Origin: Dehalococcoidia bacterium
GTDB lineage: Bacteria; Chloroflexota; Dehalococcoidia; GIF9; AB-539-J10
Assembly: GCA_021162545.1 (NCBI GenBank)
Contig: JAGGYM010000053.1
Span: 10,272-74,271 of the forward strand
Direction of reading: 5' to 3'
Length of the DNA stretch: 64,000 nucleotides
The number at the start of each line of letters is the position of its first letter. Position 1 is the first letter of the stretch. This document shows positions 10,320 to 33,761 of this stretch, piece after piece. The translations under genes and the position numbers were made by a program. The notes under the pieces were generated by a model. That model saw only the letters and a program-made list of their open reading frames with translations. It was not told the origin of the DNA and ran no database searches.

Positions 10320-10332
10320 GATTTTATCTCCT

Positions 10333-14680: not shown

Positions 14681-14682
14681 AG

Positions 14683-15162
14683 ATGAAAAGAGAGTTGAAA
14701 ATCACGGTCAACGGTGATCTTTACGAACTTTACGTAGACCCTGGCATGTTACTGGTAGAGGTACTGAGAGACAGGCTGGGGCTGACGGGAACCAAGAGGG
14801 GTTGCAATAGCATGAGTTGTGGTGTCTGCACGGTGATACTGGACGGCAAGGCGGTTAAGTCATGCACCATACTTGCTCTTCAGGCAAACGGCAAGAACGT
14901 TACCACCATCGAAGGCATGGCCAACGGCTCTAAGTTGCACCCAATACAGCAGTCTTTCATTGACCACTGGGCATTCCAGTGCGGATTCTGCACTTCGGGG
15001 CAGATCATGGCAGCCAAAGCACTGCTGGACGAGAATCCCAATCCAACCAGAGAAGAAATCAAGCATACCATGAACGGTCATCTCTGCAGGTGCACCGGAT
15101 ATAACATGATTATCGAAGCGATACTGGATGCAGCAAACAGACTTCAGGAGGAAGTGAAATGA
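14683..15162 (+). CDS. xanthine dehydrogenase-family [2Fe-2S] small subunit (CoxS-like)
   Basis: MKRELKITVNG…GCNSMSCGVCTV… plus a second cluster motif (CGFCTSGQ). An RBS aggagataaag precedes the ATG at 14683. The track ORF starts upstream at 14623, in frame and overlapping the previous gene. Confidence 0.85.
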   Translation: MKRELKITVNGDLYELYVDPGMLLVEVLRDRLGLTGTKRGCNSMSCGVCTVILDGKAVKSCTILALQANGKNVTTIEGMANGSKLHPIQQSFIDHWAFQCGFCTSGQIMAAKALLDENPNPTREEIKHTMNGHLCRCTGYNMIIEAILDAANRLQEEVK

Positions 15163-17756: not shown

Positions 17757-19817
17757 ATGCGAATAGGAATCGATGTAGGGGGTACTTTCACCGATGTGGT
17801 GCTGGTGGATGACGAAGGAAAGTTTTACTACACCAAGGCTACTACTACTCACTATGATTTAGCCGAAGGCGTACTGAACGGACTGGCTGATATCCTGCAG
17901 ATGTCGGGCAAATCCCTCAAGGAGACAGATACCATCGTCCACGGCACCACCATCGGCACCAATGCCATTGTGGAGGGAAATGGAGCCAGAGCAAGTCTGA
18001 TCACCACAAAGGGATTCGAGGACGTGCTGGAGATCAGGAGAGTGGCGCGCCCCAAAGAGGCCGCTTACGACTTCGAGGTGGACAACCCTCCTCCCCTGGT
18101 GCCGCGCTATTTGAGAAAGGGCATAATTGAACGCACCAATCACAAGGGAGAGGTAGTAATTCCCCTCGATGAAACTTCGGTGCGCCAAGTTGTAGCTTTC
18201 TTTAAAAAAGAGCAGGTGGATGCCATAGTAGTTTCTCTGCTTTTCTCTTTCCTCAACCCCGCTCATGAATTGCGCGTGGCTGAAATATGCCGGGAAATGA
18301 TGCCGGGAATAGATGTTTCCCTTTCGCATGAAATCTGTCCTGAATTTCGAGAGTACGAGCGAACCTGTACCACCGTTATGAACGGTTATCTTGGACCCGT
18401 TATCAGCGAGTACATGGACAATCTGGTTGCCCGTCTCACGAAAAGGTATGGAAAAGTCGACCTCCACATCATGCAGAGCAACGGCGGATCAATGACGGTT
18501 GATATCGCCAAGCACTACTCCGCCAACTTGATTAACTCAGGCCCCGCTGCCGGAGCCATTGCCTCCGCCTTCATCACCAAGCTCATGGGCAGAGACCTGG
18601 CTGTCGGCGCGGATATGGGAGGAACCACCTTTGATATCAGCCTCATCGACGGTGGTATTCCCAGAAGCACTACCTGGGGAGGAGTAACCGAATACCCTAT
18701 CAAGCTTCCCATGGTTGATATGACAACTATTGGCGCCGGTGGAGGTAGTATCGCCTGGATAGATGACATGGGGGCACTCAATGCAGGACCTCAGAGCGCC
18801 GGTTCGCAACCCGGGCCATCCTGCTACGGAACCGGTGGCGAATTGCCCACCATAACCGATGCTAACCTGGTTCTGCACCGACTGGATCCAAAGTATTTCC
18901 TGGGCGGCAGGCAGCAAATATACCCGGAAAAAGCGTATCAGGCCATCAAGGAACATGTAGCTGATAAGCTGGGAATGTCAGTGGAAGAGGCCGCTCTGGG
19001 AATAATCAGAATTGCCAACGCCAACATGGCAAAGGGCATCAGCGGCAGCTCAGTGGAAAGGGGATACGACCTGCGCGACTTCATGTTGATAGCCTTTGGT
19101 GGGGCCTGTTCCCTCCATGCCGTGGAGATAGCCAGGGAATTGCACATACCGGAGGTAGTAGCACCACCCATGTCCGGGCTCTATTCCGCTGTGGGGTTGG
19201 TCGTAGCCGACATACAGCACGATTACGTCAGGACGATGAAGGCGCGTATGGATGAACTCACAGGCCCGGAGATACAGGCCATTTTCCAGGAACTTGAAGA
19301 GAAGGGCATCCAGCAGTTGCGAGAAGAAAAGGTAAAGGAAGAGGACATGGTGCTGGAGTGGTCAGCCGATATGCGCTATGAGGGACAATCATGGGAATTA
19401 AACATTTCTATTGCGCGCACCGATACCGTAGGCCCTCAGGAAATAGCGCAAATAGAGTCTATCTTCCACGAAGAGCATCAAAAGGCATATTCCTATTCCA
19501 ATCCAGGGGAAGTGGTAGAATTTGTTAACTTCCGCGTGAGAGCCAAAGGCAAAGCTACCAAAGCGACTTTGCCCAGTTATCCTGAAGACCCAACTCCCCC
19601 GTCAGCAGCATTGAAGGATCGCAGAGTTGTCTGGTTTGATGAAGGCCCCCTTGAAATTCCCGTCTATGAGAGGGACCTCTTTGGAGTCGGCTCATCAGTA
19701 GATGGCCCCTGTATTATTGAGGAAAGAGTTTCCACGACTCTCGTGCCTGCGGGATGCACCTGTCGCATTGATGCCTTCAAGAACCTGGTGGTTTCCACTG
19801 GAGAAGATGAAGACTAA
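17757..19817 (+). CDS. hyuA: hydantoinase/oxoprolinase family protein, A subunit (HyuA / acetone-carboxylase-beta-like)
   Basis: 686 aa. MRIGIDVGGTFTDVVL is the ASKHA-fold N-terminus typical of N-methylhydantoinase A / 5-oxoprolinase. Confidence 0.85.
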   Translation: MRIGIDVGGTFTDVVLVDDEGKFYYTKATTTHYDLAEGVLNGLADILQMSGKSLKETDTIVHGTTIGTNAIVEGNGARASLITTKGFEDVLEIRRVARPKEAAYDFEVDNPPPLVPRYLRKGIIERTNHKGEVVIPLDETSVRQVVAFFKKEQVDAIVVSLLFSFLNPAHELRVAEICREMMPGIDVSLSHEICPEFREYERTCTTVMNGYLGPVISEYMDNLVARLTKRYGKVDLHIMQSNGGSMTVDIAKHYSANLINSGPAAGAIASAFITKLMGRDLAVGADMGGTTFDISLIDGGIPRSTTWGGVTEYPIKLPMVDMTTIGAGGGSIAWIDDMGALNAGPQSAGSQPGPSCYGTGGELPTITDANLVLHRLDPKYFLGGRQQIYPEKAYQAIKEHVADKLGMSVEEAALGIIRIANANMAKGISGSSVERGYDLRDFMLIAFGGACSLHAVEIARELHIPEVVAPPMSGLYSAVGLVVADIQHDYVRTMKARMDELTGPEIQAIFQELEEKGIQQLREEKVKEEDMVLEWSADMRYEGQSWELNISIARTDTVGPQEIAQIESIFHEEHQKAYSYSNPGEVVEFVNFRVRAKGKATKATLPSYPEDPTPPSAALKDRRVVWFDEGPLEIPVYERDLFGVGSSVDGPCIIEERVSTTLVPAGCTCRIDAFKNLVVSTGEDED

Positions 19818-19851
19818 GCTAAAATGACAGACATAAAAATGGAGGATGACA

Positions 19852-21585
19852 ATGGCTAAATACAAAGCAGATCCGGTTACCATGCAGGTTATTCGCTATG
19901 CGCTCGAGGCAGTGGCGGATGATATGGGGCATGCCCTGCAGCGCATGGGACGAAGCACCATCGTCAAGGAAATCATGGATTTTAACTGTGCCGTCCTTGG
20001 CCGCGAGGGCGACATTCTGGCTCAGGCGCATCTGTGTCCGCTGATGATGTTCAGCTTGCCTCGTACCTGCTATAACATAGTGCAGCATTACCCCGCAGAT
20101 TCCTGGCAGGAAGGCGATGTCATTATGACCAACGATCCCTACTTGGGAGGCCAGCACCTGCTCGATGTGCAGTTTTTCTCTCCGGTAATACACGAGGGCA
20201 AACACGTGGGCTTTGTGGCCAACATTTGTCACCAGCTGGATATGGGAGGAGCGGTCCCCGGAGGTGTAGCCGGAGGGCTCACCGAGATATATCAGGAAGG
20301 TCTGCGCATTCCCTTCGTTAAGATTCTCAAGGGGGGAAAAGAAGACGAAGAACTTTTCTCCCTTGTTGGACGGAACATTCGTATCCCGGAGAAGACCCTG
20401 TCTGACTTCAGGGCTCAAATTGCCACTACTGCAGTGGGGGTAAACAGGGTGAAAGAGGTCATAGATAAGTATGGATTGGATATCTTCCAGCAAAGCACTC
20501 AAATGCTGATAGATTACAGCGAGAAGCGAATCCGACGCTTCATCAGCGAACTCCCCGACGGTGACTACACCGGAGAAGACTGGCTGGACGATGATGGGCA
20601 CAGTGACGACCCCATTAGACTCCAGGTCAATGTACATGTACAGGGCGACACCATGAAGGTCGATTTTAAAGGTACTGCCAAGCAGGTTAAAGGCAATATC
20701 AATTGTCCCTGGTCCTGCAGCGAAGGAGCCGTGTTCTATACCGCAGTGGGCTTAATAGACCCCTATATGCCCATAAACGCCGGCTGTTTTCGCCCCATTG
20801 AAGTAACACCCGATGAGGGACTCATCACCTGTCCACTCCCGCCAGGAGCAGTCACCGCGCGCAGCCAGACGATGACCAAGATCACCGAGGCCATGCTCAG
20901 AGCCGTAGCTCCAATCCTGCCCAGTAAAGTTGTTTCAGGAAGTCATGGTCAGGCCACTACTTGCAGCTTCGCGGGAATTCATCCCGAGACGGGCAGGCCT
21001 TTTGGCTACATAGAAATCCAGGGGGGAGGCTGCGGTGCCAGGCCAGACAAGGATGGAGCTGATGGCCAGGACTTACACCTGGGACGGTTCATGAACACCC
21101 CGGTAGAGGCGGTGGAGATGGAATATCCCGTTACTATCGAGCGATACGGGTTCATTCCCGATTCAGCGGGGGCAGGAAGATGGAGGGGAGGCCTCAGCAT
21201 GCGCCGGGACATCCGCTTCCACGCAGATGTTACCTTCGCCAGGTACTCCGACAGACGCAAGTTTGCTCCTCAGGGAATCTTCGGGGGCAAAGAAGGAATC
21301 AAGGGTGACATGGTGCTCAACCCCGGCACTGATAAAGAAGAGCACCCCGAATCCAAGGGTGTCAGCGAGATAAAGGCGGGAGACCTTCTCAGCCTTCGCC
21401 TGCCCGGCAGCGGTGGCTATGGCCCCCCCTGGAAGCGAGAAGCCTCCAAAGTTCGCTGGGACGTGCTTAACGGCAAGATCAGCGCCGAATCAGCCAGGGA
21501 CAATTATCTGGTAGTCCTTAATCCTGATATCACGGTCAATGAGGAGAAGACGAAAGCCCTGCGAGACAGAGCTTCAGTTAAATAG
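19852..21585 (+). CDS. hyuB: hydantoinase B/oxoprolinase family protein (HyuB)
   Basis: 577 aa from the Met at 19852, which has a GGAGG RBS 6 nt upstream. DPVTMQVIRYAL…NDPYLGGQHL is the HyuB signature. Confidence 0.85.
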   Translation: MAKYKADPVTMQVIRYALEAVADDMGHALQRMGRSTIVKEIMDFNCAVLGREGDILAQAHLCPLMMFSLPRTCYNIVQHYPADSWQEGDVIMTNDPYLGGQHLLDVQFFSPVIHEGKHVGFVANICHQLDMGGAVPGGVAGGLTEIYQEGLRIPFVKILKGGKEDEELFSLVGRNIRIPEKTLSDFRAQIATTAVGVNRVKEVIDKYGLDIFQQSTQMLIDYSEKRIRRFISELPDGDYTGEDWLDDDGHSDDPIRLQVNVHVQGDTMKVDFKGTAKQVKGNINCPWSCSEGAVFYTAVGLIDPYMPINAGCFRPIEVTPDEGLITCPLPPGAVTARSQTMTKITEAMLRAVAPILPSKVVSGSHGQATTCSFAGIHPETGRPFGYIEIQGGGCGARPDKDGADGQDLHLGRFMNTPVEAVEMEYPVTIERYGFIPDSAGAGRWRGGLSMRRDIRFHADVTFARYSDRRKFAPQGIFGGKEGIKGDMVLNPGTDKEEHPESKGVSEIKAGDLLSLRLPGSGGYGPPWKREASKVRWDVLNGKISAESARDNYLVVLNPDITVNEEKTKALRDRASVK

Positions 21586-21702
21586 AATTGACTTCGCCCC
21601 AAGTGGTATACTGACCCTGTTCTGAGAAACAAAGTCAGAGAAACTAAAAGCCCAGGAGAGTGCTTGAAATAGAGGGCTCTCTTGGTTTGTGTAACTGATG
21701 TT

Positions 21703-23955
21703 ATGAATGACGAAATTGAAACCAAAAGAGCTCTTTGTTTTGCCTGTTCCGGGCTGGCAGGAGTTGAAGCTACCGTCAAAGATGGCAGGGTAGTAAAACT
21801 CAGTGGCGAGCCGGACCACTTCATGAACAAGGGATGGCTTTGTGACAGGTCCCGGGCATTCATGGAACATCTTTATCATCCCGACCGCCTGAATTACCCC
21901 TTGAAAAGAGCCGGCCGCAGAGGAGAAAACAAGTGGGAGAGGATTTCCTGGGACCAGGCCCTGGATGAAATAGCCAAAAAGCTAAAAGAGATAAAAGCGG
22001 ATTACGGAGCCGAGGCCCTGGCCAGCGTCTGTGGCACCGGCAGGGGACACCAGCAAATAATAAAAGAGAGGTTCATGAACCTCTTCGGCAGCCCCAACAG
22101 TGCCAATGCAGGGCAGTGGTGTGCCATTTATAACTACATGCTTGAGGCAGCAATCTATGGAGGGGCTACAAGGGGGAAATCGGGCCTTGGCGTTGGCAAG
22201 TGTCTCGTGTTGTGGGGAAAGGAACCGGCAGAATCTCAGGCATGCACCTTCCGAAACCTGCTGGAGCTGAAACGTGCTGGCACCAAGTTTATTGTCATTG
22301 ACCCGAAGCTTTCGCTGAGCGTGGATAAGCTCGCCGATGTATGGCTGCAGATTAGACCCGGCACGGATGCCGCTCTGGCACTGGGCTGGTTAAACGTCAT
22401 CATAGCAGAAGAACTCTACGACAAGGAATTCGTGGACAAATGGTGTTACGGCTTTGACCAGCTGAAGGAAAGGGTGAAGGAGTATCCCCCTGAGAAGGTA
22501 GCCGAGATAACCTGGATTCCCGAAGAAAAAATAGTGGAGGCGGCGCGTTTATATGCCACCAGCAAACCGGCATCTATCCAGTGGGGAGTAAAAGGAGGAG
22601 ATATGGAGGGGGTGAACGCCTCCTCAATGATGCACGCCAAGTGCATCCTGCGCGCCATTACCGGCAACCTCGACGTTCCGGGAGGTGACATAATCCAGGG
22701 GCCATGCGAGAAGGCCAACTATGGCCCCATCTTTGAATGCCTGGACATGATTCCACCGAAGCAGAGAGCCAAGCAGCTGGGCGCTGATAAGTACCGGGCG
22801 TGGACCTGGCCGGGCTATGAAATTATCTACGAAGCGGGCAAGCGCTACTGGTACGGGAAAGGTTGTTTTGGCGGTTATGCTCCTGCCTGCGACTTCCCCA
22901 GCTTGTGGCGAGCCATAATCACGGGCAAGCCATACCCGGTGAAGGCCTTGATATGCGGAGGGCACAATCCCCTCCTGGCCAATGCCAATACGCACATCGT
23001 CTACAAAGCACTCAAGAGTCCCAACCTCGAGCTAACTGTGGTTCTGGAGCAGTGGATGACGCCCAGCGCCATGCTGGCCGACTACGTCTTTCCCGTTGCC
23101 AACTGGTTGGAAAAGCCCGTTGTATCTATGCATACCAGCCAGGGCATGGGAAACTATGTTTCCATCGGGGAGAAGGTGGTAGAACCTCTCTACGATCGTA
23201 AGCCCGATCACTATTTCTACCGGGAACTTGGCTTGAGGCTCGGTCAGGAGAAGTACTGGTGCGACACGCTTGAAGACGAGTTCACCTGGCTGCTTGAGCC
23301 CCTGCTGGATGAATTGGGCTACGATTCCGCCATGGAATTTGCCAGGAAAGAGAGGTGGTGGCATCCACCTTTTGTGGAAAAGCGGTATGAAAAGATAAAT
23401 CCCAAGACGGGGAAGCAATGGGGTTTCGCCACGCCCACGGGAAAAGCCGAAGTTTATTCCACCTGGTTTGAGCAGCTTGGCTATGACCCCCTGCCTCATT
23501 ACGAAGAGCCGCCCGAAACGCCGGTAAGCAACCCTGAACTGGCCAAAGAATATCCCCTTATCCTCATGACGGGTATGCGGTTCAGGGCCATGCACCATTC
23601 AGAACACAGACAGATTTCCTCTTTACGGAGGCTGCAACCTTACCCCACAACCAGGATCCATCCTGATACGGCTCGAGAGCTCGGGATAAAAGATGGCGAC
23701 TGGGTTTTTATCGAGACCGTCAGGGGAAGAATCAAACAAAAGGCCTCTCTTTATGCTGGCATAAATCCAAAGGTAGTTGAGATTCAGCACGGCTGGTGGT
23801 TCCCGGAGAAAAAAGCGGAGGACCCCTCGTTGTTCGGGGTCTTCGAGTCCAACGCCAACGTGTTAACCGAAGACGATGAAAAACATCGAGATGCTCCGTC
23901 GGGGGCAGTAGCTTTTGTTCCTTACCTGTGCAAGGTTTACCCGGCAAATGAGTAA
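21703..23955 (+). CDS. molybdopterin/tungstopterin oxidoreductase, DMSO-reductase (MopB) family catalytic subunit; cytoplasmic (no Tat signal); alternative start at 21682
   Basis: About 750 aa. It has an N-terminal MopB Fe-S region, MGD-binding domains and a C-terminal molybdopterin dinucleotide-binding beta-barrel (…HGWWFPE…). The N-terminal motif reads C-x2-C-x3-A-x27-C, so the third Cys is replaced by Ala. Confidence 0.8.
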   Translation: MNDEIETKRALCFACSGLAGVEATVKDGRVVKLSGEPDHFMNKGWLCDRSRAFMEHLYHPDRLNYPLKRAGRRGENKWERISWDQALDEIAKKLKEIKADYGAEALASVCGTGRGHQQIIKERFMNLFGSPNSANAGQWCAIYNYMLEAAIYGGATRGKSGLGVGKCLVLWGKEPAESQACTFRNLLELKRAGTKFIVIDPKLSLSVDKLADVWLQIRPGTDAALALGWLNVIIAEELYDKEFVDKWCYGFDQLKERVKEYPPEKVAEITWIPEEKIVEAARLYATSKPASIQWGVKGGDMEGVNASSMMHAKCILRAITGNLDVPGGDIIQGPCEKANYGPIFECLDMIPPKQRAKQLGADKYRAWTWPGYEIIYEAGKRYWYGKGCFGGYAPACDFPSLWRAIITGKPYPVKALICGGHNPLLANANTHIVYKALKSPNLELTVVLEQWMTPSAMLADYVFPVANWLEKPVVSMHTSQGMGNYVSIGEKVVEPLYDRKPDHYFYRELGLRLGQEKYWCDTLEDEFTWLLEPLLDELGYDSAMEFARKERWWHPPFVEKRYEKINPKTGKQWGFATPTGKAEVYSTWFEQLGYDPLPHYEEPPETPVSNPELAKEYPLILMTGMRFRAMHHSEHRQISSLRRLQPYPTTRIHPDTARELGIKDGDWVFIETVRGRIKQKASLYAGINPKVVEIQHGWWFPEKKAEDPSLFGVFESNANVLTEDDEKHRDAPSGAVAFVPYLCKVYPANE

Positions 23956-23981
23956 GAGGAGCTGCACGTTACATTCGAGAT

Positions 23982-24623
23982 ATGGCTAAAGTGCATCTGG
24001 CCATCGATGGAGTGGACGTTGAGGTTGACCAAGGCACCACCATACTGGAAGCAGCTCGAGAAGCGGGCATTTATATCCCCACCCTGTGCTTTCATCCCGA
24101 TTTGCCGCTATCGCTAGCTGTGTGCCGCCTGTGCGTTGTTGAGGCTACAGAGGCGGAATCGCGGTTCCCCAGCTCGTGTGTCACCCCGGTTGCATGGGGG
24201 ATGATAGTTCGCACGGATACGCCAGCTGTCAAAGAGATCCGGCGGCACTTCTTCAAAGCCATTTTCTCTCCACTGCCAAGCCCCAGGCTCAACATGCCGG
24301 AGTTGAAGAAGCTCGCGGACTACATAGGTGTAGGGGAGGAGGATTTCCCCCCTTATGTTTTCAAGAACCTTCCCGTTGACCGCGACCAGCCGCTTCTCGA
24401 ACTGGACCACAACCGCTGTATCCTTTGCGAATTATGTATCAGGGCATGTAAAAAGGAACTGGGGGGAACCGGGGCAATAGACTTCGACTACAGGGGAGGG
24501 AGATGGATGGTAGTTCCTTTTCCTTCACCATCGCTCAAGGAAAACGGCTGCAGATTTTGTGGCCTCTGCGTGGAAGTGTGCCCCACGGGCGCGCTGAGAT
24601 ATAAGAAAGGTGAGAGTAATTGA
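23982..24623 (+). CDS. NuoG/HoxU-N-terminal-like iron-sulfur protein (2Fe-2S ferredoxin fold, a His/Cys3 [4Fe-4S] and a [4Fe-4S]), standalone copy
   Basis: 213 aa with CFHPDLPLSLAVCRLC (2Fe-2S), HNRCILCELCIRAC and CRFCGLCVEVCPTG. It is about 93% nucleotide-identical to the 5' 640 bp of the next gene. Confidence 0.75.
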   Translation: MAKVHLAIDGVDVEVDQGTTILEAAREAGIYIPTLCFHPDLPLSLAVCRLCVVEATEAESRFPSSCVTPVAWGMIVRTDTPAVKEIRRHFFKAIFSPLPSPRLNMPELKKLADYIGVGEEDFPPYVFKNLPVDRDQPLLELDHNRCILCELCIRACKKELGGTGAIDFDYRGGRWMVVPFPSPSLKENGCRFCGLCVEVCPTGALRYKKGESN

Positions 24624-25283
24624 TCACAGGAGGCAAAGAATATGGGTAAATTGCATCTGGCCATCGATGGCGTGGACGTTGAGGTTGATCAAGGCACCAC
24701 CATACTGGAAGCAGCTCGAGGAGCGGGCATTTATATTCCCACCCTGTGCTTTCATCCTGATTTGCCACTATCGCTAGCTGTCTGCCGCCTGTGCGTTGTT
24801 GAAGCTACGGAGGCGGAATCACGGTTCCCCAGTTCGTGTGTCACCCCGGTTGCACGGGGGATGATAGTTCGCACAAATACGCCAGCAGTCAGAGAGCTCC
24901 GGCGGCATTTCTTCAAGGCCCTGCTCACTCCACTGCCGAGCCCCAGGCTCAATATGCCGGGGTTGAAAAAGCTCGCGGACTACATAGGCGTAGAAGAGGG
25001 GGATTTCCCCCCTTATGTCTCCAGAAACCTTCCCGTTGACCGCGACCAGCCGCTTTTCGAACTGGACCACAACCGCTGTATCCTCTGCGGGCTATGCATA
25101 AGAGCATGCAAGGAACTGCGTGGTGTAGGGGCAATAGACTTCAGTCTCAAGGGCGAGAGCTGGACGGCAGGCCCCTTTCCCTCTCCATCGCTCAAGGAAA
25201 ACGGCTGCAGATTTTGTGGCCTCTGCGTGGAAGCGTGCCCTACAGGTGCACTGACGGACAGAGATGGAGGATGGGTCGACCGC
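23982..25283 (+). repeat. tandem direct duplication (~640 bp units at 23982..24623 and 24642..25283, ~93% nt identity)
   Basis: I aligned the two units by eye. The first 280 nt of each differ at about 20 positions and both keep an open frame with the same Cys motifs. Confidence 0.8.
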
Positions 25284-26759
25284 GACAAGCCACAGGCCCC
25301 CTGTACCCAGGCCTGTCCTGCGGGAGTTGACGTGCCGCGATACGTTTGGCTCATAGGACAGCGGAGATTCGATGACGCAGCGGCAGTTATCAGGGAAGAG
25401 GTTACTTTTCCCGGAGTTTTAGGTCGGGTATGCCCTCATCCCTGCGAAGAAAAGTGCCAGCGCGCCGCGCTAACCGAGCCCATCGCAATAGCGGCTTTGA
25501 AACGCACTGCTGCAGAGCAAAGCGTCAGCTGGCACCAAAATTTGCCGGCGGTTGTTGCCACCGGCAAAAAAATTGCCATCGTGGGCTCAGGCCCATGCGG
25601 TCTTACCGCCGGTTACCATCTGGCGCGCAAAGGCCACTCCGTGACCGTGTTTGAGGAGACGCTGGAACCGGGCGGCATGATGCGGTTGTGCATTCCGTCC
25701 TACCGTCTGCCCCGGCACATACTGGCGCAGGAAATAGAAGAGATCAAAAGAGCGGGGGTCGCCATAAAAACGGGCGCGAAAGTGGAATCGGTGAGCAAAC
25801 TCTTTCAGCAGGGGTACAATGCTGTCCTGCTTGCCACCGGAGCTCACCAGTCGCTCAAGCTGGGCATAGAAGGTGAAAACGGTCCCGGTGTGATGAACGG
25901 CGTTGCTTTCTTAAAAGACGCAAACCTGGGAAAAGTGCGCCACATTGAGGGATGGATAGCGGTCGTTGGTGGAGGAAATGCTGCCATAGATTCTGCACGA
26001 GTGGCCTTGCGGATGGGAGCTCAGAGGGTAACCATCCTCTACAGGCGCTCCCGTACAGAGATGCCAGCAGATGTCGAGCAGGTGGAAGCGGCACTGGAAG
26101 AGGGGATTGAAATCGAATTTCTCACTGCTCCCACGAAGATACTCAGAAAAGGCGGCAGCCTCCAGGTCGAATGCATCCGGATGAAGCTGGGAGAGAAAGA
26201 TGCCAGCGGGAGACAGCGGCCCCTTCCCATCGAAGGGAGCGAGCGCGTTCTTGAGTTTGACACTCTCCTTGCAGCCATCGGAGAAACTGCTGAAAGTTCC
26301 TTCATTGGAGAAAACGACTCCGTGCAAATTGGCAATACGGGGTTGATCGCAGTTGATGAGAGTGGCGTGACAACTGATATGCCGGGCGTTTATGCGGCAG
26401 GCGATGCAGTCAGCGGCCCATCTACCGTTATCGAGGCCATCGCTATGGGGAAGAAAGCCGCCGCATCCATCGATAAATACCTCGGTGGAGATGGAGATAT
26501 AAGCGAAAATCTAATTGAGCCGGCAGTGCCCAATTTACGGGCGGAACCCGTAGAGGACTTCGCTGACCTGAATCGCGTTCGAAAACCCTGTCTGCCAGTC
26601 GAGCAACGAATGATTCTCGCTCCAGATGGAACTTTCCCCGAGGTAGAGCTTGGATTTACTGGAGCCATGGCGTCCGAAGAAGCAAGCCGATGCTTGCAAT
26701 GCCAGCTAAGGTTCAGCATTTCTCCTGTTGTGCCTCTGCCAGCAAAACAGGCGCGTTAA
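24642..26759 (+). CDS. fusion protein: NuoG-N-terminal-like Fe-S module plus 2x[4Fe-4S] plus GltD-like NAD(P)H-dependent FAD oxidoreductase
   Basis: 705 aa. The first ~200 aa are near-identical to the preceding ORF. Then comes a dinucleotide-binding GltD-like domain (KIAIVGSGPCGLTAGYHLA…AAGDAVSGPSTVIEAIAMG). Confidence 0.8.
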   Translation: MGKLHLAIDGVDVEVDQGTTILEAARGAGIYIPTLCFHPDLPLSLAVCRLCVVEATEAESRFPSSCVTPVARGMIVRTNTPAVRELRRHFFKALLTPLPSPRLNMPGLKKLADYIGVEEGDFPPYVSRNLPVDRDQPLFELDHNRCILCGLCIRACKELRGVGAIDFSLKGESWTAGPFPSPSLKENGCRFCGLCVEACPTGALTDRDGGWVDRDKPQAPCTQACPAGVDVPRYVWLIGQRRFDDAAAVIREEVTFPGVLGRVCPHPCEEKCQRAALTEPIAIAALKRTAAEQSVSWHQNLPAVVATGKKIAIVGSGPCGLTAGYHLARKGHSVTVFEETLEPGGMMRLCIPSYRLPRHILAQEIEEIKRAGVAIKTGAKVESVSKLFQQGYNAVLLATGAHQSLKLGIEGENGPGVMNGVAFLKDANLGKVRHIEGWIAVVGGGNAAIDSARVALRMGAQRVTILYRRSRTEMPADVEQVEAALEEGIEIEFLTAPTKILRKGGSLQVECIRMKLGEKDASGRQRPLPIEGSERVLEFDTLLAAIGETAESSFIGENDSVQIGNTGLIAVDESGVTTDMPGVYAAGDAVSGPSTVIEAIAMGKKAAASIDKYLGGDGDISENLIEPAVPNLRAEPVEDFADLNRVRKPCLPVEQRMILAPDGTFPEVELGFTGAMASEEASRCLQCQLRFSISPVVPLPAKQAR

Positions 26760-26769
26760 GGAGGATACG

Positions 26770-27750
26770 ATGTTTTCCAGCGAAGTAGTCATCAACGAAG
26801 AACGATGTCGTGGATGTGGATATTGTGTGCAATTTTGCCCTCGAGAATGTCTGGAACTGGACAGGGACAAGATCGGCCCCCTGGGATGTGCCCTGCCCGT
26901 TTTGACCAAAGCTGAGCAATGCAATACTTGTGGGGTTTGTGCCAGAATGTGTCCCCACTGGGCAATAGAGGTTTTCGCAACTCTAAAGATTCCGGAGGAA
27001 GCTCCCATCAGGGAAAAAATTGCAGGCTTACCAAAGTTGATGCCTTCTCCACCTCTGGCAAACTGTGCCGGATGTCAGCATCCAACGGTGGGCAGGCTCA
27101 TTGCCGGAGTTATAGCTGAACTGGGGCTCCGCGATAAGTTCGTCGCTCTCGATGGCATAAGCTGTGGAGGTTCATCAGTGTTAAGCATGGATTTCGGGCA
27201 GGTAGTGGGCATATATGACGACCCGATCGAGATGGCTCTGGCGGCCAAGCGCGCCCATCCCGATAAAGTCGTACTCGCTTTACTGAACAGCCCGAAGTTC
27301 GATATCATCGGCTACGATTCTTTGATGAGGGCGCTGACTTCGTCTGAAAAGATTACGATCATTAACTGTAATGACCCTCTCTATGGCCCGTGGCCGGCAA
27401 AGTGGCGCGTGGCCACTCCGGTGAGCTGCGTTCCTGATCCTGCTGCCGGGGAATTGACTGTAAGCAAATATCATGTACCGATGGCTGAAATGGCAGCAAC
27501 GTTCGACGGAGTTGCCTACAGCGCCCGTGGCGCTTTTACCTCGCTGGATGATTATGAGCACACAAAAAGCTATCTCAGAACTGCCATTCAAAAGCAGGTG
27601 CATAATGCCGGTTTTAGTTTTGTGGACGTTCTTTGCGCATGCATGGTTTTATCATATGAGAATCCCGTGGATTGTTTGCGGTGGATCAAAGAGGAGATGG
27701 TTGCTAAACTCCCTCTGGGCATATACAAGAACACCGATCGCGAGAGATAA
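26770..27750 (+). CDS. 2x[4Fe-4S] ferredoxin domain fused to a 2-oxoacid:ferredoxin-oxidoreductase beta-subunit-like (TPP-fold) domain; function unknown
   Basis: There is an RBS aggaggatacg before the ATG at 26770. The N-terminus reads CRGCGYCVQFCP…CNTCGVCARMCP. A CAGCQHP motif sits where OFOR beta subunits carry CPGCGH. No clear GDG TPP motif was seen. The track ORF starts at 26728. Confidence 0.5.
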   Translation: MFSSEVVINEERCRGCGYCVQFCPRECLELDRDKIGPLGCALPVLTKAEQCNTCGVCARMCPHWAIEVFATLKIPEEAPIREKIAGLPKLMPSPPLANCAGCQHPTVGRLIAGVIAELGLRDKFVALDGISCGGSSVLSMDFGQVVGIYDDPIEMALAAKRAHPDKVVLALLNSPKFDIIGYDSLMRALTSSEKITIINCNDPLYGPWPAKWRVATPVSCVPDPAAGELTVSKYHVPMAEMAATFDGVAYSARGAFTSLDDYEHTKSYLRTAIQKQVHNAGFSFVDVLCACMVLSYENPVDCLRWIKEEMVAKLPLGIYKNTDRER

Positions 27751-27755
27751 TGAGC

Positions 27756-28706
27756 TCATACCCGGATATGTGGAGCAAGAGACCTCAACGCTCGCGCTAG
27801 ATCCTCCGGCAACGAGCACCTGAATTCCTGGTATTCATCGTTACGTGGGAGACGGAAGCCCAGATAGTGAGCATGAACAAACTGTCTCTTCAGAAACGGC
27901 ACTCTCGCGCCATAAACAGGGTCGCCTGCTACCGGATAGCCGATAGCTTTCAGGTGCACCCGTATCTGGTGAGTGCGTCCTGTCAAAGTAGCCACTTCTA
28001 TTAAGGTGTAGCCCTCCAGATATTCCTCGACTTCGTACCTGGAGATGGCTTCCTTTCCCGTTTCAACTATCGCCATTTGCCTGCGGTGATGGGGATCTCT
28101 GCCTATAGGCGCCTCAATTATCCCCCGGACAGGCGACAGCCTGCCCTTCACCAGAACGAGATACCCTTTACTTACGGTGCGGTCCTTGAACTGGCCTGCG
28201 AGATACCTGCGAGCGAAGTCGTTCTTGGCTATCACGATAAGCCCTGAAGTATCCTTATCCAGCCTGTGAACTATGCCGGAGCGCATGGGGTCATCGCCCG
28301 TATCTATGTGAGGACAATAGGATAGAATGGCATTGACCAGCGTATGCGCGGGGTGCCCCGGGGATGGGTGAGTAATCAGTCCGGGGGGCTTGTCAAGGAC
28401 CAGGATATCTTCATCTTCGTAAACCATGCTCAGAGGTATCTTCTCAGGTGAAGGGCGCTCCGGCAGAACCGGGAGCATGATGGTTATCCTGTCAGTTTCC
28501 TTCAATTTCAGGCTCGCTTTCGCCTTCTGTTCGTTAACCAGAACGCAGTCCTGCTCAACGAATTTCTTTATGCCGGAGCGGGAAAATTGTGGTAAAGTCT
28601 GCACCAGGTATTTATCCAGACGGCTACCCGCCATGGTCGGATCGACCTGGAGCGTCTCAACTTTCATCCCCACGTCCATGTTCATGCATCTTGCTGAAGA
28701 AGCCAT
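27756..28706 (-). CDS. rluD: 23S rRNA pseudouridine synthase, RluA family (RluD-like); the true start is probably the internal Met near 28667
   Basis: It has an S4 domain (LDKYLVQTLPQFSRSGIKKFV) and the catalytic motif HRLDKDTSGLIVIAKN. Confidence 0.88.
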   Translation of the reverse strand: MASSARCMNMDVGMKVETLQVDPTMAGSRLDKYLVQTLPQFSRSGIKKFVEQDCVLVNEQKAKASLKLKETDRITIMLPVLPERPSPEKIPLSMVYEDEDILVLDKPPGLITHPSPGHPAHTLVNAILSYCPHIDTGDDPMRSGIVHRLDKDTSGLIVIAKNDFARRYLAGQFKDRTVSKGYLVLVKGRLSPVRGIIEAPIGRDPHHRRQMAIVETGKEAISRYEVEEYLEGYTLIEVATLTGRTHQIRVHLKAIGYPVAGDPVYGARVPFLKRQFVHAHYLGFRLPRNDEYQEFRCSLPEDLARALRSLAPHIRV

Positions 28707-29166
28707 CTCGAATCAGCGATATAATAAATGCCAAGATGCCTACAACTACGGCAGAATCGGCAAAATTGAAGGCAGGCCAGATAAAGACGTCCTGTATGTG
28801 AAACTCAATAAAGTCGGTTACGCTGCCAGAGCAGAGACGGTCTATCAGGTTCCCTATAGCACCTCCCAGTATCAAGCTGACGGACACTATACTCAGAGTT
28901 GTAACAGGAGACAGGTACCTGAGAATTAGCACTATTACCACCAGGCTGATTACGCTGACTGCAATAAGAAAGAGAGTCTGGTTGGCAAATAATCCAAAGG
29001 CAGCTCCAGAATTCTCAACATGAACTAAGTTGAGCCATCCCGGCAACAGCTCTATTTGTGGTGAATTTGCTCGGACCCAGAGCTTGCTCAGTTGATCGAG
29101 AAGAACCACCAGGAAAACCACCAGCAAGGATAAAGCAACTTTCCTCTTATCTTGTACCCTTCGCAT
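28657..29166 (-). CDS. lspA: lipoprotein signal peptidase (signal peptidase II)
   Basis: 169 aa, four TM segments, conserved NSGAAFG and FNFAD motifs. Confidence 0.88.
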   Translation of the reverse strand: MRRVQDKRKVALSLLVVFLVVLLDQLSKLWVRANSPQIELLPGWLNLVHVENSGAAFGLFANQTLFLIAVSVISLVVIVLILRYLSPVTTLSIVSVSLILGGAIGNLIDRLCSGSVTDFIEFHIQDVFIWPAFNFADSAVVVGILAFIISLIRDGFFSKMHEHGRGDES

Positions 29167-29515
29167 CCTTTGTCTGGCTCGCTTTGCACTTCAAACATAA
29201 GCTTGCTTGAGGTAGCGCCTCAAGGCGAGCCTGCTCTATAGGTTGACCACAGGCGTCACATAATCCATAAGTGCCTGCTTCATATTTTTGTAAGGCATGC
29301 TCTATGCTGGCAAGCGAAACCCTTGCCCTTTCTTCTTGAGCTATTCTCCTCTCCATTTCCAGTGCACCATCCGCCTCTTCCTCCCTCTTGCCAAAGGGAC
29401 TGCCATCTCTCCTCTCTGACATCGACGATGCATCCGCTTCCAGCTGATCCAGCTTTACCAGTATTTGCCTCTCCTCTTGCTTCAGTCTCTCATAAAGTTC
29501 ACTTGATTTGGCCAC
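29147..29515 (-). CDS. DksA/TraR-family C4-type zinc-finger protein
   Basis: A coiled-coil N-terminus, then CDACGQPI…CLKC. Confidence 0.75.
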   Translation of the reverse strand: MAKSSELYERLKQEERQILVKLDQLEADASSMSERRDGSPFGKREEEADGALEMERRIAQEERARVSLASIEHALQKYEAGTYGLCDACGQPIEQARLEALPQASLCLKCKASQTKDAKGTR

Positions 29516-29609
29516 TTCATGCCCTCCTCCAATCCAGTATTGCTACGTATCGCGTAACTGCGCTAAAAACTCAAAATTTCCAAGGGAAAATGCCAGTTGA
29601 GATAGAGGA

Positions 29610-31202
29610 TTAATCGAAAGCCTTTCTTATATCGGGATGCAAGACACCCTGAAGTTTTTCCACGGATTCGCGCCTTATCTTAACAAGCTCTCTTTTTCTT
29701 TCTTTAAATTCGCTTTTCGAATAAAGTCTCTCCGGGTGCAAATAGATATCATCCACATATCTTATGGCATTTGGCACTTTAAAGCCCACGGGTGAATCTG
29801 TCCAGTCCTCAAGCCCTCCCCGGAAAAGAGAGTCCAGAGTGGCTACGGTTTGTTCCACCGTGATGTTCTCATGGTGGTCTCCTTCGCCAATTCCACCTGT
29901 ATTTATCAGGTAGTAATTCGTATATCGAAGGCCCTGCAGTATCTCATAGAACCTGTTGGCATGCTCTGCCCTGTCTCCTGCCATAAAGGGGTCGTAAAAA
30001 AACTCACTCTTGATCTTTCCCGCTTGCGTGGGGTCGCCCGCTGAAGATTCCATTGACTGTCCTAAAATCATCAGCGCTGTGGCCTGCTCTAAAGTCAATT
30101 TTGATATTATCGGTATCAGTGGGCCTCGCGTTATGAGAATCAGGTTATCGATCCTGTCAACGTCAATATAGGGACTGGCATGAAGGAAACTTTTTCTCGG
30201 GATAACAGCCCTTCCATTCGATGTCCTTTCAAAATTATAGAAGTCGAAATCTCCCCCCCCCGTCACATAGATATTCTCACAGAGGGTCTCCTGTTTCAGC
30301 AAACCATAAAAAATTTCGATCTGGTTGCCTGGATTTACCCCTTCCGTCTTGACAAATATCCCTCCGGCCTCAAATCCATGGAAAGAGCCGTCAGGCATGA
30401 GAGTTCCTCCATCATCCTGAACGAGCCACGATTTTTCCTTTCCTTTTCTGGCAAGGATCTTGCCCGTCAGCGTCGTTTTTCCGTTGGCGCTGACAGCAAG
30501 GAGCAGCGACCTCGTGGTCCTGTAGCCACCGTGAACTGTTTGAAGATAGTCCTCCCGGCAGCCGGCATGCAAGAATATGCCCCCTCTTTGAGTTTTGCTA
30601 ACCCAGTCTTCAGCGGCAAAGACCCCTTTCTTGTATTCGCCGATGTAATTGCCATTGCGGACTATTTTGATAACCCTGCCCCTATCCAGCATGGCCAACC
30701 TGATGGTGATATCCTTCTTGGGAAGCACTTTGGCTTTGTTGGATTCAAAAGCCTCATCGGCAAACATCACTATCTCGTATGATGGTTGCACTGTTTCATC
30801 CTTTACGGGCAAAAACAGATTGCCTCCTCCATAGGCCACATGGGCAAACCTCTCAGGGACAATTAACCTGACGACAGCCCTGCTCCTGTCATTGCCCACA
30901 ATTCTGTCGATGGAAATCAGCTTTTCCCTGGCTAAAGCCTTTTCAGCCTGAGACAGCAGCTTCAGCTCTTCGTCACCGAAAGCATCGTCAACGCTATTCC
31001 TGGTAAACAGCGCCGCTCTGGAGGAAGGCTCACTTTCCGCAACATAATTTCCGTACTTGGTTTTCCTCGTCCCCGGCTGTCTCTCCACCAGCAACCTCAA
31101 CTCTTCACTGCCAGGATTGTGAATTAACCGGTTTTCCTCTATCGCCTTATCTCTGATCCTGGCGACAGTTCGTGCAAATTCTTCCAGGTCGATAGCTGAC
31201 AT
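29610..31202 (-). CDS. pckA: phosphoenolpyruvate carboxykinase (ATP)-like protein (divergent)
   Basis: 530 aa, matching ATP-PEPCK in length. It has a kinase-1a-like SANGKTTLTG, then LVQDDGG / FEAGG…ENIYV, collinear with the E. coli SGTGKTTLS…LIGDDEHGW…FEGG…ENV. The alignment is from memory. Confidence 0.55.
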   Translation of the reverse strand: MSAIDLEEFARTVARIRDKAIEENRLIHNPGSEELRLLVERQPGTRKTKYGNYVAESEPSSRAALFTRNSVDDAFGDEELKLLSQAEKALAREKLISIDRIVGNDRSRAVVRLIVPERFAHVAYGGGNLFLPVKDETVQPSYEIVMFADEAFESNKAKVLPKKDITIRLAMLDRGRVIKIVRNGNYIGEYKKGVFAAEDWVSKTQRGGIFLHAGCREDYLQTVHGGYRTTRSLLLAVSANGKTTLTGKILARKGKEKSWLVQDDGGTLMPDGSFHGFEAGGIFVKTEGVNPGNQIEIFYGLLKQETLCENIYVTGGGDFDFYNFERTSNGRAVIPRKSFLHASPYIDVDRIDNLILITRGPLIPIISKLTLEQATALMILGQSMESSAGDPTQAGKIKSEFFYDPFMAGDRAEHANRFYEILQGLRYTNYYLINTGGIGEGDHHENITVEQTVATLDSLFRGGLEDWTDSPVGFKVPNAIRYVDDIYLHPERLYSKSEFKERKRELVKIRRESVEKLQGVLHPDIRKAFD

Positions 31203-31293
31203 CTTGATCCTCCGTGTAGCGCAGTTCCGGCCTTTCCTCTCACGCCAGAAAAGAAGCCGGGCAGAAGCAGTATTTTACCGCCTCATATCTAAT

Positions 31294-33192
31294 CTATACT
31301 TCGCGGAATTCTCCTTCTACCGTCCCTTCCTCGCCGGGGCTGCTCTGGCTGCTACCTTCCGCTTCCGGCGCAGGCGGCTGCTGGTACACCGACGCTCCAA
31401 TTTTCTGCATGGCCTGCGACAGTTCCTTCACAGCACTATTAATTGCACCAGCGTCTTTTCCCTGGAGAGCAGAGCGCACGCTGGCTATCTTGGTTTCTAC
31501 TTCCTGCTTTACATCCGCCGGTACCTTCTCTCCATGCTCGCGGAGCGTTTTCTCCGCAGTGTAAGCCAGATTATCGGCAGAATTGTACAGCTCAACTTCT
31601 TCCTTGCGCCTGACATCCTCAGCAGAATGAGCCTCTGCTTCTTGCCTCATCTTCTCTATCTCTTCTTTGCCCAACCCGCTGGAGGCAGTGATGGTGATTT
31701 TCTGCTCTTTTCCGGTACCTTTGTCGAGTGCACTGACTTTCAGAATTCCATTTGCATCTATGTCAAAGGTCACTTCGATCTGAGGCAGTCCCCGTGGCGC
31801 CGGTAAAATGCCATCAAGCATAAAACGCCCCAGAGTCCGATTATCCCCAGCCATGGGGCGCTCCCCCTGGAGTATGTGTATCTCCACGCTGGGTTGATTG
31901 TCGCTGGCTGTACTGAAAATCTGGCTCTTGGAGGTGGGGACAGTCGTGTTGCGTGGAATGAGAGGTGTAGCCACTCCCCCCAGGGTCTCTATACCCAGAG
32001 TAAGCGGGGTAACGTCAAGCAAGAGAACTTCTCCGACCTCCCCTTTGAGAACCCCCGCCTGAATGGCTGCCCCTCTGGCTACAACTTCATCGGGGTTGAT
32101 TCCCTTGGATGGTTCTTTACCAAAGAATTGCTTTACCTTTTCCTGAACCAGGGGCATCCTGGTCTGACCACCTACGAGAAGAACTTCAGTTACCTGGTTT
32201 GCTGCCAATCCAGCATCCTGCAGTGCCTGTTGACAGGGCTCAATCGTTTGCTCGACCAAATCCATAATCAGTTGTTCCAACTTGGAACGCGTTAGAGCGA
32301 TATTAAGGTGTTTTGGCCCCGCTGCATCGGCAGTAATGAAGGGAAGGTTTATCTCGGTTTGTTGCACCGTTGAGAGTTCACACTTTGCTCTTTCCGCCGC
32401 CTCCTTGAGCCTTTGCAATGCCATGCGATCATTTCTCAGGTCAATTCCCTGGTCTTTTTTGAATTCATCGCAAAGCCACTCAACAACACGATGATCGAAG
32501 TCCTCACCGCCAAGGTGCGTGTTCCCGCTGGTTGATTTGACCTGGAAGGTGCCCTCTCCTATCTCCAGAACAGAGACATCGAACGTTCCCCCACCCAAGT
32601 CATATACCACTATAATCCCCTCGTTTTTCTTATCAGTGCCATAGGCTAAAGCGGCGGCGGTGGGTTCGTTAATTATGCGAATGACGTTCAATCCCGCAAT
32701 TGCCCCGGCATCTTTGGTTGCCTGACGCTGACTGTCATTGAAATAGGCCGGCACCGTAATCACCGCATCCGTCACCGTATCGCCAAGATAAGCTTCCGCA
32801 TCAGCCTTGAGCTTCTGCAAAATCATCGCCGATATTTCCTGAGGAGTATATTCTTTGCTTCCCATGAGTACCTTGATTTCGTCGTTCGGACCATGCGTTA
32901 CCTTATAAGATGCACGGCGGGCATCCTCTTCAGGAGACATTTCCCTCCCCACTGGCTCATTCCATTTTCGCCCCATGAATCGCTTGATGGCATATACGGT
33001 ATTATCCGGATTAACGATAGCCTGCCTCTTGGCAACCTGCCCTACTAATCTCTCCCCGTTCTTGTTTATGGCCACTACAGAGGGAAATAAGTTTGAGCCT
33101 TCAGAACAGGGAATCAGCTTCGGCTGCCCTCCTTCCATAATGGCAACCTCGCTCAGAGTCGTGCCCAAGTCAATACCTACTGTTTTTCCCAT
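31294..33192 (-). CDS. dnaK: molecular chaperone DnaK (Hsp70)
   Basis: [14 protein letters not shown], the GG…RMPLVQ linker and a C-terminal lid. It is downstream of grpE and hrcA. Confidence 0.95.
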
Positions 33193-33194
33193 GA

Positions 33195-33749
33195 TTATCC
33201 TCCGTTTATTATATCTTCTTCTCTGGTTTTCTCTTGCTTTTCCTTACCCACTACGACAGAACTTGGGCGAAGAAGTTTGCCTTTGAACATATAGCCCGCA
33301 CGAACCTCTTCAAGAACTACCCCTTCTTTTCCTTCTGCCTGTGCTACCGCTTCATGCACATGGGGGTCAAAAACTTCGCCAACAGCCCCGAGCCTGGTTA
33401 GTCCCTGCGTTTCCAGAGCCGATTTAGTCTTATTATAGATGAGTCTTACACCTTCAGTCCAACTGGATCTGGCAAATTTAGCCGGCAGTGAATCAAAGGC
33501 TCTCTCAAAATCGTCCAGAACAGGCAACAGGTTCAAGACGAGCGCCCTGTTGGCAGATTCGATTATCTCCAACTTCTCACGCTCAGCACGCTTTATGTAA
33601 TTGCTTAAATCAGCCTGTGCTCTCTGCAAGCCAGCCAGATATTCCTCTGCCCTGTCTCTTTCCTGAGATAAAGCTTCTTCAGGTATTTCTTCATCCTGCT
33701 CACTTGCTAGGATATCTGATGTGCTCTCGTCATTATTGTTCTCGGCCAA
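33195..33749 (-). CDS. grpE: nucleotide exchange factor GrpE
   Basis: 184 aa with an acidic N-terminus and a coiled coil ([19 protein letters not shown]). Its position between hrcA and dnaK fits. Confidence 0.9.
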
Positions 33750-33761
33750 CTCGGAACCTCC

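Follow-up and report, generated by a model that had tools for sequence, protein, structure and literature searches.

The window analysed here, 64,000 nucleotides (nt) from a metagenome-assembled genome (MAG) of a Dehalococcoidia bacterium (contig JAGGYM010000053.1, positions 10,272 to 74,271 of the forward strand), contains two adjacent genes that carry the same type of iron-sulphur (Fe-S) module: ORF A, an open reading frame (ORF) coding for a free-standing Fe-S protein of 213 amino acids (aa), and ORF B, which codes for a flavoprotein of 705 aa and bears the module at its N-terminus. The database entries of both proteins derive from a Dehalococcoidia MAG, and the two genes follow a gene for a molybdenum/tungsten (Mo/W) enzyme (Table 1). 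The sequence comparisons described below suggest, with a probability of about 0.7, that the pair goes back to an old partial tandem duplication, that recurrent gene conversion has since acted on its two copies, and that A was retained as a HoxU-like subunit of the complex encoded by the Mo/W operon.

The A/B repeat is genuine and the match is far beyond chance: BLASTP aligns the two proteins with 177/210 identities (84%), one 1-residue gap and an E-value of 5e-128, and a repeat search of the DNA returned two pairs of direct-repeat blocks, 23980-24279/24640-24939 (91%, offset 660 nt) and 24453-24597/25110-25254 (81%, offset 657 nt). Both ORFs are present in the ORF list as the first-pass annotation had described them; the nucleotide identity of ~93% that it gave is too high, since the codon alignment yields 87.5% over 618 aligned nt (88% by blastn), with 77 mismatches and a 3-nt indel. 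Likewise, the homology, which had been extended over the first ~213 codons, reaches only to 24596 in A (codon 205) and to 25253 in B (codon 204), where it stops after the residues ...CPTGAL, and the last eight codons of A, RYKKGESN, are unique to it; further A-specific peptide stretches are GALRYKK, CKKELGGTGAIDFDYR, ACKKELGGTGAIDFDYR and GGRWMVVPFPSPSLK. The substitutions had been placed at the ends of the repeat and called mostly conservative. Instead, the 5′ 200 nt are the most similar stretch (93-97% in 60-nt windows), the identity falls to its minimum of 67-72% at nt 451-540 (codons ~151-181), and only 9 of the 33 differing protein positions (32 substitutions and the gap) score as positives. 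The more general description is upheld: a partial tandem duplication has left an in-frame, intact and free-standing Fe-S module of the downstream flavoprotein, the ligands of the [2Fe-2S] and [4Fe-4S] clusters are kept, with the same 12 Cys columns in both copies, and the adjoining upstream gene does code for a Mo/W oxidoreductase of the bis-molybdopterin guanine dinucleotide (bis-MGD) type.

Close free-standing relatives of A are very few: a search among 5.8 billion proteins retrieved only P0003 (80%) and P0002 (82%). The contigs bearing P0003/P0002 belong to two lineages, one represented by three JGI samples (L002, L003 and L004) and the other by an ENA sequence (L005), and both have the same (HyuA-HyuB-)Mo/W-A synteny. 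In all of them, the TGA of A is followed by a spacer of ~18 nt with an AGGAG-type motif and then by a second ORF, which in L002-L004 restarts with their own A sequence (MARVHLTIDGKDIEV...) and in L005 with the first 30 nt of A; the contigs stop 31-81 nt into B, ending within the second copy, as is typical of short-read assemblies at a repeat. Comparisons with the B of a second genome consequently rest on these short stretches and on L007, a contig that begins at B codon 98, the full B of the L002 and L005 lineages being absent from them. The 3′ boundary of homology is identical in all the duplicated lineages (after GAL/GAI/GAM), and it is followed in each by a tail of eight codons and a TGA, the tail reading RYKKGESN in the window, RYKKDGYN in L005 and SYKRDRYN in L002. 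Aligned ungapped and in register, tail and spacer of the three lineages give 36/45, 25/45 and 28/45 matches (binomial P 0.002 to 1e-4), and the ATG of B is in frame with A in all three. A chimeric protein query (residues 1-97 of the L002 A joined to residues 98-330 of the L007 B) retrieved the three free-standing clusters already known and otherwise only distant relatives, and no further B N-termini.

As for the number of copies in relatives, a point raised in the first-pass annotation, the layout with two copies is found in L005 and in L002-L004, whereas in L020 (Mo/W protein 83% identical) and L015 (73%) the Mo/W gene is followed directly by a fused B, with no free-standing copy; an adjacent free-standing copy of the module was found in 0 of the 11 other related module-bearing loci surveyed (L030 and L031 included). 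The synonymous divergence (dS) of the Mo/W gene is 0.28 between the window and L005 and ~1.5 between the window and L002. This calibration, together with the single-copy arrangement of L020, places the duplication after the branching of L020 and before the split at dS ~1.5; thus, the A-tail-spacer-B layout does not bear out the description of the duplication as recent. Separately, the Mo/W gene of L020 has an in-frame TAA (positions 2914-2916 of that contig) where the window has Glu (HYE*PHES vs HYEEPPET), which is either a sequencing error or the mark of a pseudogene.

The modules are more similar within a genome than between genomes. Indeed, dS is 0.36 between A and B of the window, versus 1.25 between the A of the window and that of L002 and 1.13 between the B of the window and that of L007. 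In neighbour-joining trees of codons 98-206, the A of L002 groups with the B of L007 (bootstrap 100%) and both modules of the window group with the A of L005 (78%, and 95% on third positions), while a clade of A-type or of B-type sequences receives 0%. The likeness is also patchy: dS between A and B of the window is 0.22 in codons 1-97, 0.31 in codons 98-150, 1.34 in codons 151-181 and 0.50 in codons 182-207, the excess in codons 151-181 being significant (Fisher P = 5e-4), and codons 149-181 of A give values of 1.3-1.45 against B. Among the A and B of the window and the A of L005, the three possible site patterns are equally frequent (41/34/42), but they are clustered along the sequence (runs test P = 0.024).

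The divergent segment is informative about the age of the pair. In codons 149-181, an extra codon and linked replacements (CELCIRACKKE.G..G) are common to the A of the window, the A of L002 and the B of L007, whereas the ancestral form, CGLC.RAC-KELRGVG, is kept in the B of the window (25086-25181), in the A of L005 and in all outgroups. The Mo/W tree being ((window, L005), L002), the sharing of this derived codon indicates that two module types predate the split of the lineages and that in L005 conversion replaced the sequence of A by that of B; in the L002/L007 lineage, where B carries the A-type segment, the replacement went from A to B, provided that L007 is not chimeric. The coexistence of the two types does not depend on L007, since in the window, L002 and L005 alike the A sequence lies on one uninterrupted stretch with its Mo/W gene and tail. 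Taken together, these data point to homogenisation of A and B by patchy, two-way gene conversion following the partial tandem duplication, which would account for their high identity. Conversion may still be going on: at site 25055, the only single-nucleotide polymorphism (SNP) within the repeat among four datasets of the same population, the window and one dataset have T (Phe138 of B), and the other two have C (Leu, the state of A; F138L), a switch that hints at ongoing exchange through a short conversion tract, or at consensus cross-talk between the repeats.

These four datasets, which comprise the window, L001, L029 and L032, all hold the A-B junction, at 99.4-100% identity. L001 and L029 are ENA scaffolds from other samples, the latter reached through P0121, a representative of B at (rounded) 100%; they are 99.95% identical to positions 23742-34649 and 99.8% identical to positions 23660-32354, respectively, and both copies are present in each. 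L032 (JGI 3300017593 Ga0187538_161011), which shares the T at site 25055, tracks the window up to 24550 and is chimeric and inverted from there on, with an arm that matches the reverse complement of 24465-25058 exactly (100% identity); this arm spans the 3′ end of A, the spacer and the 5′ part of B, and is therefore an independent confirmation of the junction. Some peculiarities of these sequences were recorded besides. L032 contains reverse-complement stretches of nearby window sequence at 1-62, 1420-1510 and 8374-8967, which resemble the inverted chimeras that amplification or mis-assembly of DNA typically produces, and a by-product of them is P0343, a spurious “protein” of 262 aa in which A is joined to antisense B. 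Within B, an inverted repeat with an 11-bp stem (TTTGCCGGCGGTTGTTGCCACCGGCAAA) occupies 25541-25568, coincides with a 10-N scaffold gap of L001 (25549-25584) and adjoins a cluster of six SNPs in L029 (25493-25514); the site is either a local trouble spot for sequencing and assembly or a variable patch.

The first-pass annotation had also considered an assembly artefact. This would mean that only one copy is real and was expanded, or that the variants of two strains were joined in tandem by the assembler. The repeat certainly disturbs assemblers, as seen from the related contigs that end just inside B, from a 10-N gap within A in L029 and from the inversion of L032 inside the repeat; nevertheless, the junction recurs in three further datasets, the copies differ by as many as 77 positions and an indel, their flanks are different, A ends in a tail and a stop codon of its own, B has a separate ribosome-binding site, and orthologous two-copy loci exist in other lineages, so that this explanation is the least credible of all. 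A young, strain-specific tandem duplication, in which the likeness of the copies would simply reflect little elapsed time, is in keeping with the 87.5% identity, the intact frame and ligands, and the restriction of the free-standing form to a small clade (only three clusters above 60% identity among the 5.8 billion proteins). It is nonetheless very improbable, as lineages that differ by a Mo/W dS of up to 1.5 have the junction, the tail and the spacer in common, the dS between A and B ranges from 0.22 to 1.34 along the repeat, and the derived indel is common to distant A copies and missing from the B of the window and the A of L005. Independent, recent partial duplications in each lineage would produce the same clustering of modules by genome; slightly less probable still, they would have to share an identical 3′ breakpoint and a tail, TGA and spacer that are homologous in register across three lineages, and they leave unexplained why the A of the window and that of L002 have in common a derived extra codon that the B of the window is without, which speaks for two module types before the split.

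A and the module of B are both under purifying selection. The ratio of non-synonymous to synonymous divergence (omega, dN/dS) between them, proposed earlier as a test of functional preservation, agrees with it, being 0.11-0.23 in every segment. In the segment that appears unconverted, the A of the window and that of L002 differ by a dS of 1.23 with an omega of 0.13, and overall the segment has a dS of 1.2-1.45 and an omega of 0.13-0.16. The reading frame and the 12 Cys of A are intact in three lineages, and the nucleotide changes that can be polarised by the outgroups are evenly distributed between A (18) and B (15). Moreover, A has been kept across a dS of ~1.5 although recombination between the repeats would delete it and restore a viable layout, which argues for selection. 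A is thus most likely a real extra Fe-S subunit, a reading that these comparisons place above that of a by-product. It may also be the second electron-entry subunit suggested in the first-pass annotation.

According to the main rival explanation, which is unlikely, A is a by-product without function, of which little or no protein is made and which repeated overwriting from B keeps intact. Several observations agree with it and weigh against the reading preferred here. No Shine-Dalgarno motif was found 5-10 nt before A in the window, L002 or L005, where GAGGAG/AAGGAG lies ~21 nt upstream, so that A may be poorly translated; the B of all three lineages has a canonical one (AGGAGG/AAGGAG) 7-8 nt upstream. 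Conversion is demonstrably frequent, and repeated copying from a functional B into A might alone be enough to preserve A and a low omega over most of its length. The derived amino-acid changes are 11 on A and 4 on B, a difference that is not significant and is compatible either with a new specialisation or with relaxed constraint. Two parts of the proposed history are also weakened: L007 comes from a different MAG, and its module part is possibly an assembly chimera of A and B; the tail of A and the A-B spacer, which are suggestive of read-through into a former Mo-B intergenic spacer by virtue of the collinear blocks AAAGGTGA.AG and AATTGA..GGAGGCAA shared with the Mo-B spacer of the single-copy outgroups, do not clearly exceed shuffled sequences (P 0.05-0.94 in local and 0.05-0.5 in semi-global alignments, the suggestive values being 0.05-0.16). 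The Mo-A spacer, for its part, has no significant similarity either to the tail and A-B spacer or to the outgroup Mo-B spacer. Against the by-product stand the low omega of the unconverted segment, the conversion of B by A indicated by the A-type segment in L007, which would be harmful were A decaying, the 12 Cys and frame preserved in three lineages, and, by inference, the persistence of A despite direct repeats prone to deletion. Taken apart from this question, the TGA of A was also considered as a selenocysteine or read-through site and rejected: no Rfam family reaches threshold in the region, and the folding of the RNA over 24590-24700 is unremarkable (z = -1.16).

The history favoured here, of an old duplication followed by conversion and retention, may be outlined as follows. 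In the ancestor of a small, uncultivated Dehalococcoidia clade, the start of B, comprising its ribosome-binding region and ~205 codons, would have been duplicated in tandem; the upstream copy, running eight codons beyond the breakpoint to a TGA, would have become the free-standing A, and the downstream copy would have stayed the N-terminal module of the NfnB/GltD-like B. The duplicate would then have been kept through at least two lineage splits, during which recurrent, two-way and patchy conversion between direct repeats of 0.6 kb kept A and the module of B alike in each genome, and for this reason the pair would look young. A is presumed to be translated and to act as an electron wire or adapter of the HoxU kind in an operon-encoded complex, which would consist of a Mo/W subunit of the acetylene hydratase (AH) family, A, the NAD(P)H-linked B and a protein resembling a ferredoxin and the beta subunit of 2-oxoacid:ferredoxin oxidoreductases (OFOR). 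A would give the Mo/W subunit a second docking and transfer module, untied from the flavin domain; the free protein might connect that subunit with a different partner, for instance the ferredoxin/OFOR-beta-like protein, or fill the docking site without a flavin domain.

A more daring extension, which is quite improbable, is that conversion, and possibly selection, keeps the two modules interchangeable because both dock at one site on the Mo/W subunit, which would then have two electron routes. If this were true, electrons would pass from NAD(P)H through B, or by a low-potential route through free A and the ferredoxin/OFOR-beta-like protein, and the module would be a domain-level “spare plug”, by which one catalytic subunit switches redox partners. 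A related possibility is that occasional read-through yields a protein with two modules in tandem, which is conceivable because only a single TGA and the 18-nt spacer separate A from the in-frame ATG of B in the three lineages.

Table 1. Positions in the window of the genes and sequence segments discussed.
Feature	Position	Strand	Remarks
HyuA/HyuB-type pair (caprolactamase/acetophenone-carboxylase-like)	17757..21585	+	Immediately upstream; syntenic in L002, L032
Catalytic Mo/W bis-MGD subunit, acetylene hydratase family	21682..23955	+	No twin-arginine signal
Mo-A spacer, 26 nt	23956..23981	+	GAGGAG 21 nt upstream of the A start
ORF A, free-standing Fe-S protein, 213 aa	23982..24623	+	NCBI MCD6568090.1
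Repeat copy 1 (A codons 1-205, homologous to B codons 1-204)	23982..24596	+
Segment of A that appears to escape homogenisation (codons 149-181)	24426..24524	+	Extra codon, CKKELGGTG
A-specific tail, 8 codons (RYKKGESN) and TGA stop	24597..24623	+	Homologous in register to the L005 and L002 tails
A-B spacer, 18 nt	24624..24641	+	AGGAGG at 24628-24633, 8 nt ahead of the B start codon
ORF B, flavoprotein, 705 aa	24642..26759	+	NCBI MCD6568091.1
Repeat copy 2 (N-terminal module of B, codons 1-204)	24642..25253	+
2x[4Fe-4S] (OFOR delta-like) and degenerate OFOR beta/thiamine pyrophosphate (TPP)-like fusion, 326-340 aa	26728..27750	+	Conserved partner of B

The HyuA/HyuB pair, the Mo/W gene, A, B and the gene for the ferredoxin/OFOR-beta-like protein follow one another on one strand, with short spacers on both sides of A (Table 1). 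From the Mo/W gene to the ferredoxin/OFOR-beta-like gene, a promoter scan found no promoter-like site and a terminator scan only short, weak stems within coding sequence. The true start of the last gene is probably the ATG at 26770. Its product partners B also in L007, L009, L015, L016 and L021, and the L015 orthologue retains a TPP_enzyme_C match; no gene for an OFOR alpha or gamma subunit lies near it in the window.

The Mo/W subunit aligns over its full length with acetylene hydratase (2e7z; E 9e-141, 474 bits) and keeps the Cys that is the metal ligand (Cys141 in 2e7z; “gqwCaiy” vs “AMYMCIG” in AH). However, Asp13 of AH, which stands beside the second cluster Cys and activates water, is replaced by Ser, and the third Cys (Cys16) of the N-terminal [4Fe-4S] motif by Ala, as it is in L020 (CFACSGLAG vs CQSCDINCV); because of these two replacements, the protein does not qualify catalytically as an acetylene hydratase. 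A redox function within the AH/catechol-dehydroxylase clade, as yet uncharacterised, is probable; that clade includes also redox enzymes, the reductive catechol dehydroxylases (PMC7028382). The AH of Pelobacter acetylenicus (2e7z) is a monomer without redox partners, whereas the Mo/W gene of the window shares an operon with three electron-transfer proteins. A literature search found no account of this operon, nor of Dehalococcoidia in which AH-like enzymes have NfnB-type partners; the one passing mention concerns Chloroflexi scaffolds with AH-like genes (PMC3971608).

Other features of the window were noted around the operon. Directly upstream of HyuA/HyuB, at 13139-17444, are a CoxG-like gene and then genes for an FAD protein (CoxM-like), a 2x[2Fe-2S] protein (CoxS-like) and a molybdopterin protein of 761 aa (CoxL/xanthine-dehydrogenase-like), which are syntenic in L002 and L032; together with HyuA/HyuB, they may form one catabolic island. 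On the reverse strand, at 8913-11184, a second NfnB/GltD-like gene (467 aa, Fer4_20 and Pyr_redox_2) adjoins that of a 282-aa protein with a DHODB-type Fe-S domain, and the two are reminiscent of an NfnAB-type transhydrogenase pair. A complete 16S rRNA gene is found at 46759-48274, with no 23S rRNA gene beside it within the window, and two adjacent tRNA genes lie on the reverse strand at 51272-51425.

Protein A consists of a Fer2_4 [2Fe-2S] domain (PF13510, E 1e-17) followed by a ferredoxin domain for two [4Fe-4S] clusters (Fer4_7 and Fer4_Nqo3 matches). The [2Fe-2S] columns, Cys 36, 48, 51 and 66, align with the ligands in 7t2r_A and 8a6t_A, and those of the two [4Fe-4S] clusters are Cys 146, 149, 152 and 156 and Cys 190, 193, 196 and 200, within the motifs CxxCxxCxxxC (146-156) and CxxCxxCxxxCP (190-201); none of the 12 Cys is missing from A, B or any of the relatives examined. 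A domain search gave no match to the His-Cys3 cluster domain (PF10588, NADH-G_4Fe-4S_3) in either protein. Residues 67-145 of A contain no Cys, their sole His (His89) is not aligned with the His/Cys motif of the homologues, and the region opposite that motif in 7t2r_A is an alignment gap. The best solved matches of A are 7t2r_A, 8a6t_A, 6tg9_A, NuoG and HoxU (5xf9_B); against the HoxU family (NCBIfam NF005745/PRK07569) it scores 142.8 bits, below the cut-off of 333.

In protein B, the Fe-S module (codons 1-204) precedes Fer4_20 (PF14691, E 6e-20), Pyr_redox_2 (PF07992, E 2e-38) and a C-terminal Cys motif, and the part beyond the module appears to be an NfnB/GltD-like FAD/NAD(P)H module; among solved structures, B matches 9bov_A, 8oh5_C, 9n5u_A, 4ylf_B and 5jca_L. 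This architecture of ~700 aa is found in thousands of proteins, and the score of B against PRK12814 (524) is under the cut-off of 916. In L015, the Mo/W subunit, B and the ferredoxin/OFOR-beta-like protein form a single-copy unit, and in L016 B and the latter partner occur among other neighbours (DUF362, CoA ligase); proteins of the B type accordingly look like portable electron modules linked to NAD(P)H, and the N-terminal Fe-S module would then be the wire to the partner protein. The portability of B is suggested also by its closest full-length homologue outside the clade, P0122 (68%), which is encoded directly upstream of OFOR genes with no Mo/W gene nearby (L030 4186-9069 and L031 3272-8155); all four OFOR subunits (delta, alpha, beta and gamma) are present in L030, and in L031 the delta gene was not called.

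The case is ordinary in kind but well resolved, and it has some general implications. It cautions against the dating of duplicates by identity alone, as the pair predates at least two lineage splits and its true age is revealed by a single segment that escaped conversion. It is a natural example of how a multidomain redox protein may shed a free-standing electron-transfer module through partial tandem duplication, the new C-terminus of A being simply the sequence past the breakpoint. Since repeats break metagenome contigs, and all the contigs of the two related lineages end in the second copy, the layout is expected to be under-reported in MAGs. Finally, the operon itself, uncharacterised, is possibly the better biochemical target, as it combines an AH-family Mo/W protein without the hydratase Asp, the NAD(P)H-linked B and the ferredoxin/OFOR-beta-like protein, beside genes of the hydantoinase/carboxylase type.

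Among the known systems closest to A is HoxU, the diaphorase Fe-S subunit of NAD-reducing [NiFe] hydrogenase, which is also free-standing (~210-240 aa), has an N-terminal [2Fe-2S] cluster followed by [4Fe-4S] clusters and serves as the electron wire linking the flavoprotein to the catalytic subunit; HoxU 5xf9_B aligns with residues 9-209 of A (E 4e-22). Unlike HoxU, A is without the His-Cys3 [4Fe-4S] domain, would have a Mo/W enzyme as its partner and appears to derive from the duplicated N-terminus of the adjacent gene, and the operon around it has no HoxF/E/Y/H or hydrogenase genes. The fold and the cluster motifs of A match also the N-terminal modules of NuoG/Nqo3, of the [FeFe]-hydrogenase HydA and of the alpha subunit of NAD-dependent formate dehydrogenase (FDH); residues 2-208 of A align with 7t2r_A (a bifurcating [NiFe] hydrogenase subunit), 8a6t_A (HydA1) and 6tg9_A (NAD-dependent FDH) at E 1e-32 to 1e-29. 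In NuoG, HydA and FDH, the catalytic subunit itself bears the module, together with an additional His-ligated cluster, whereas in the window the module occurs both as part of the flavoprotein B and, free, as A.

Protein B, in turn, matches over residues 218-690 StnC (8oh5_C), the NfnA of NfnABC (9n5u_A) and 9bov_A (E 1e-116 to 1e-137), and NfnB/GltD-type modules fused to Fe-S and MopB domains are known from genes annotated as “formate dehydrogenase beta subunit” or BzdV; the domain order is [2Fe-2S]-2x[4Fe-4S]-GltD in B and [2Fe-2S]-GltD-2x[4Fe-4S]-MopB in StnC. As regards the evolution of the repeat, concerted evolution of duplicated bacterial genes has been described for tufA/tufB and for rRNA operons (PMC5485169, PMC8022953, PMC6053082), in which paralogs are likewise closer within a genome than orthologs between genomes and conversion likewise proceeds by patchy, two-way tracts between repeats of a few hundred bp. 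Those classic cases concern whole genes at dispersed loci, whereas the A/B repeats are adjacent and one of them is a domain-sized fragment that has become an ORF of its own.

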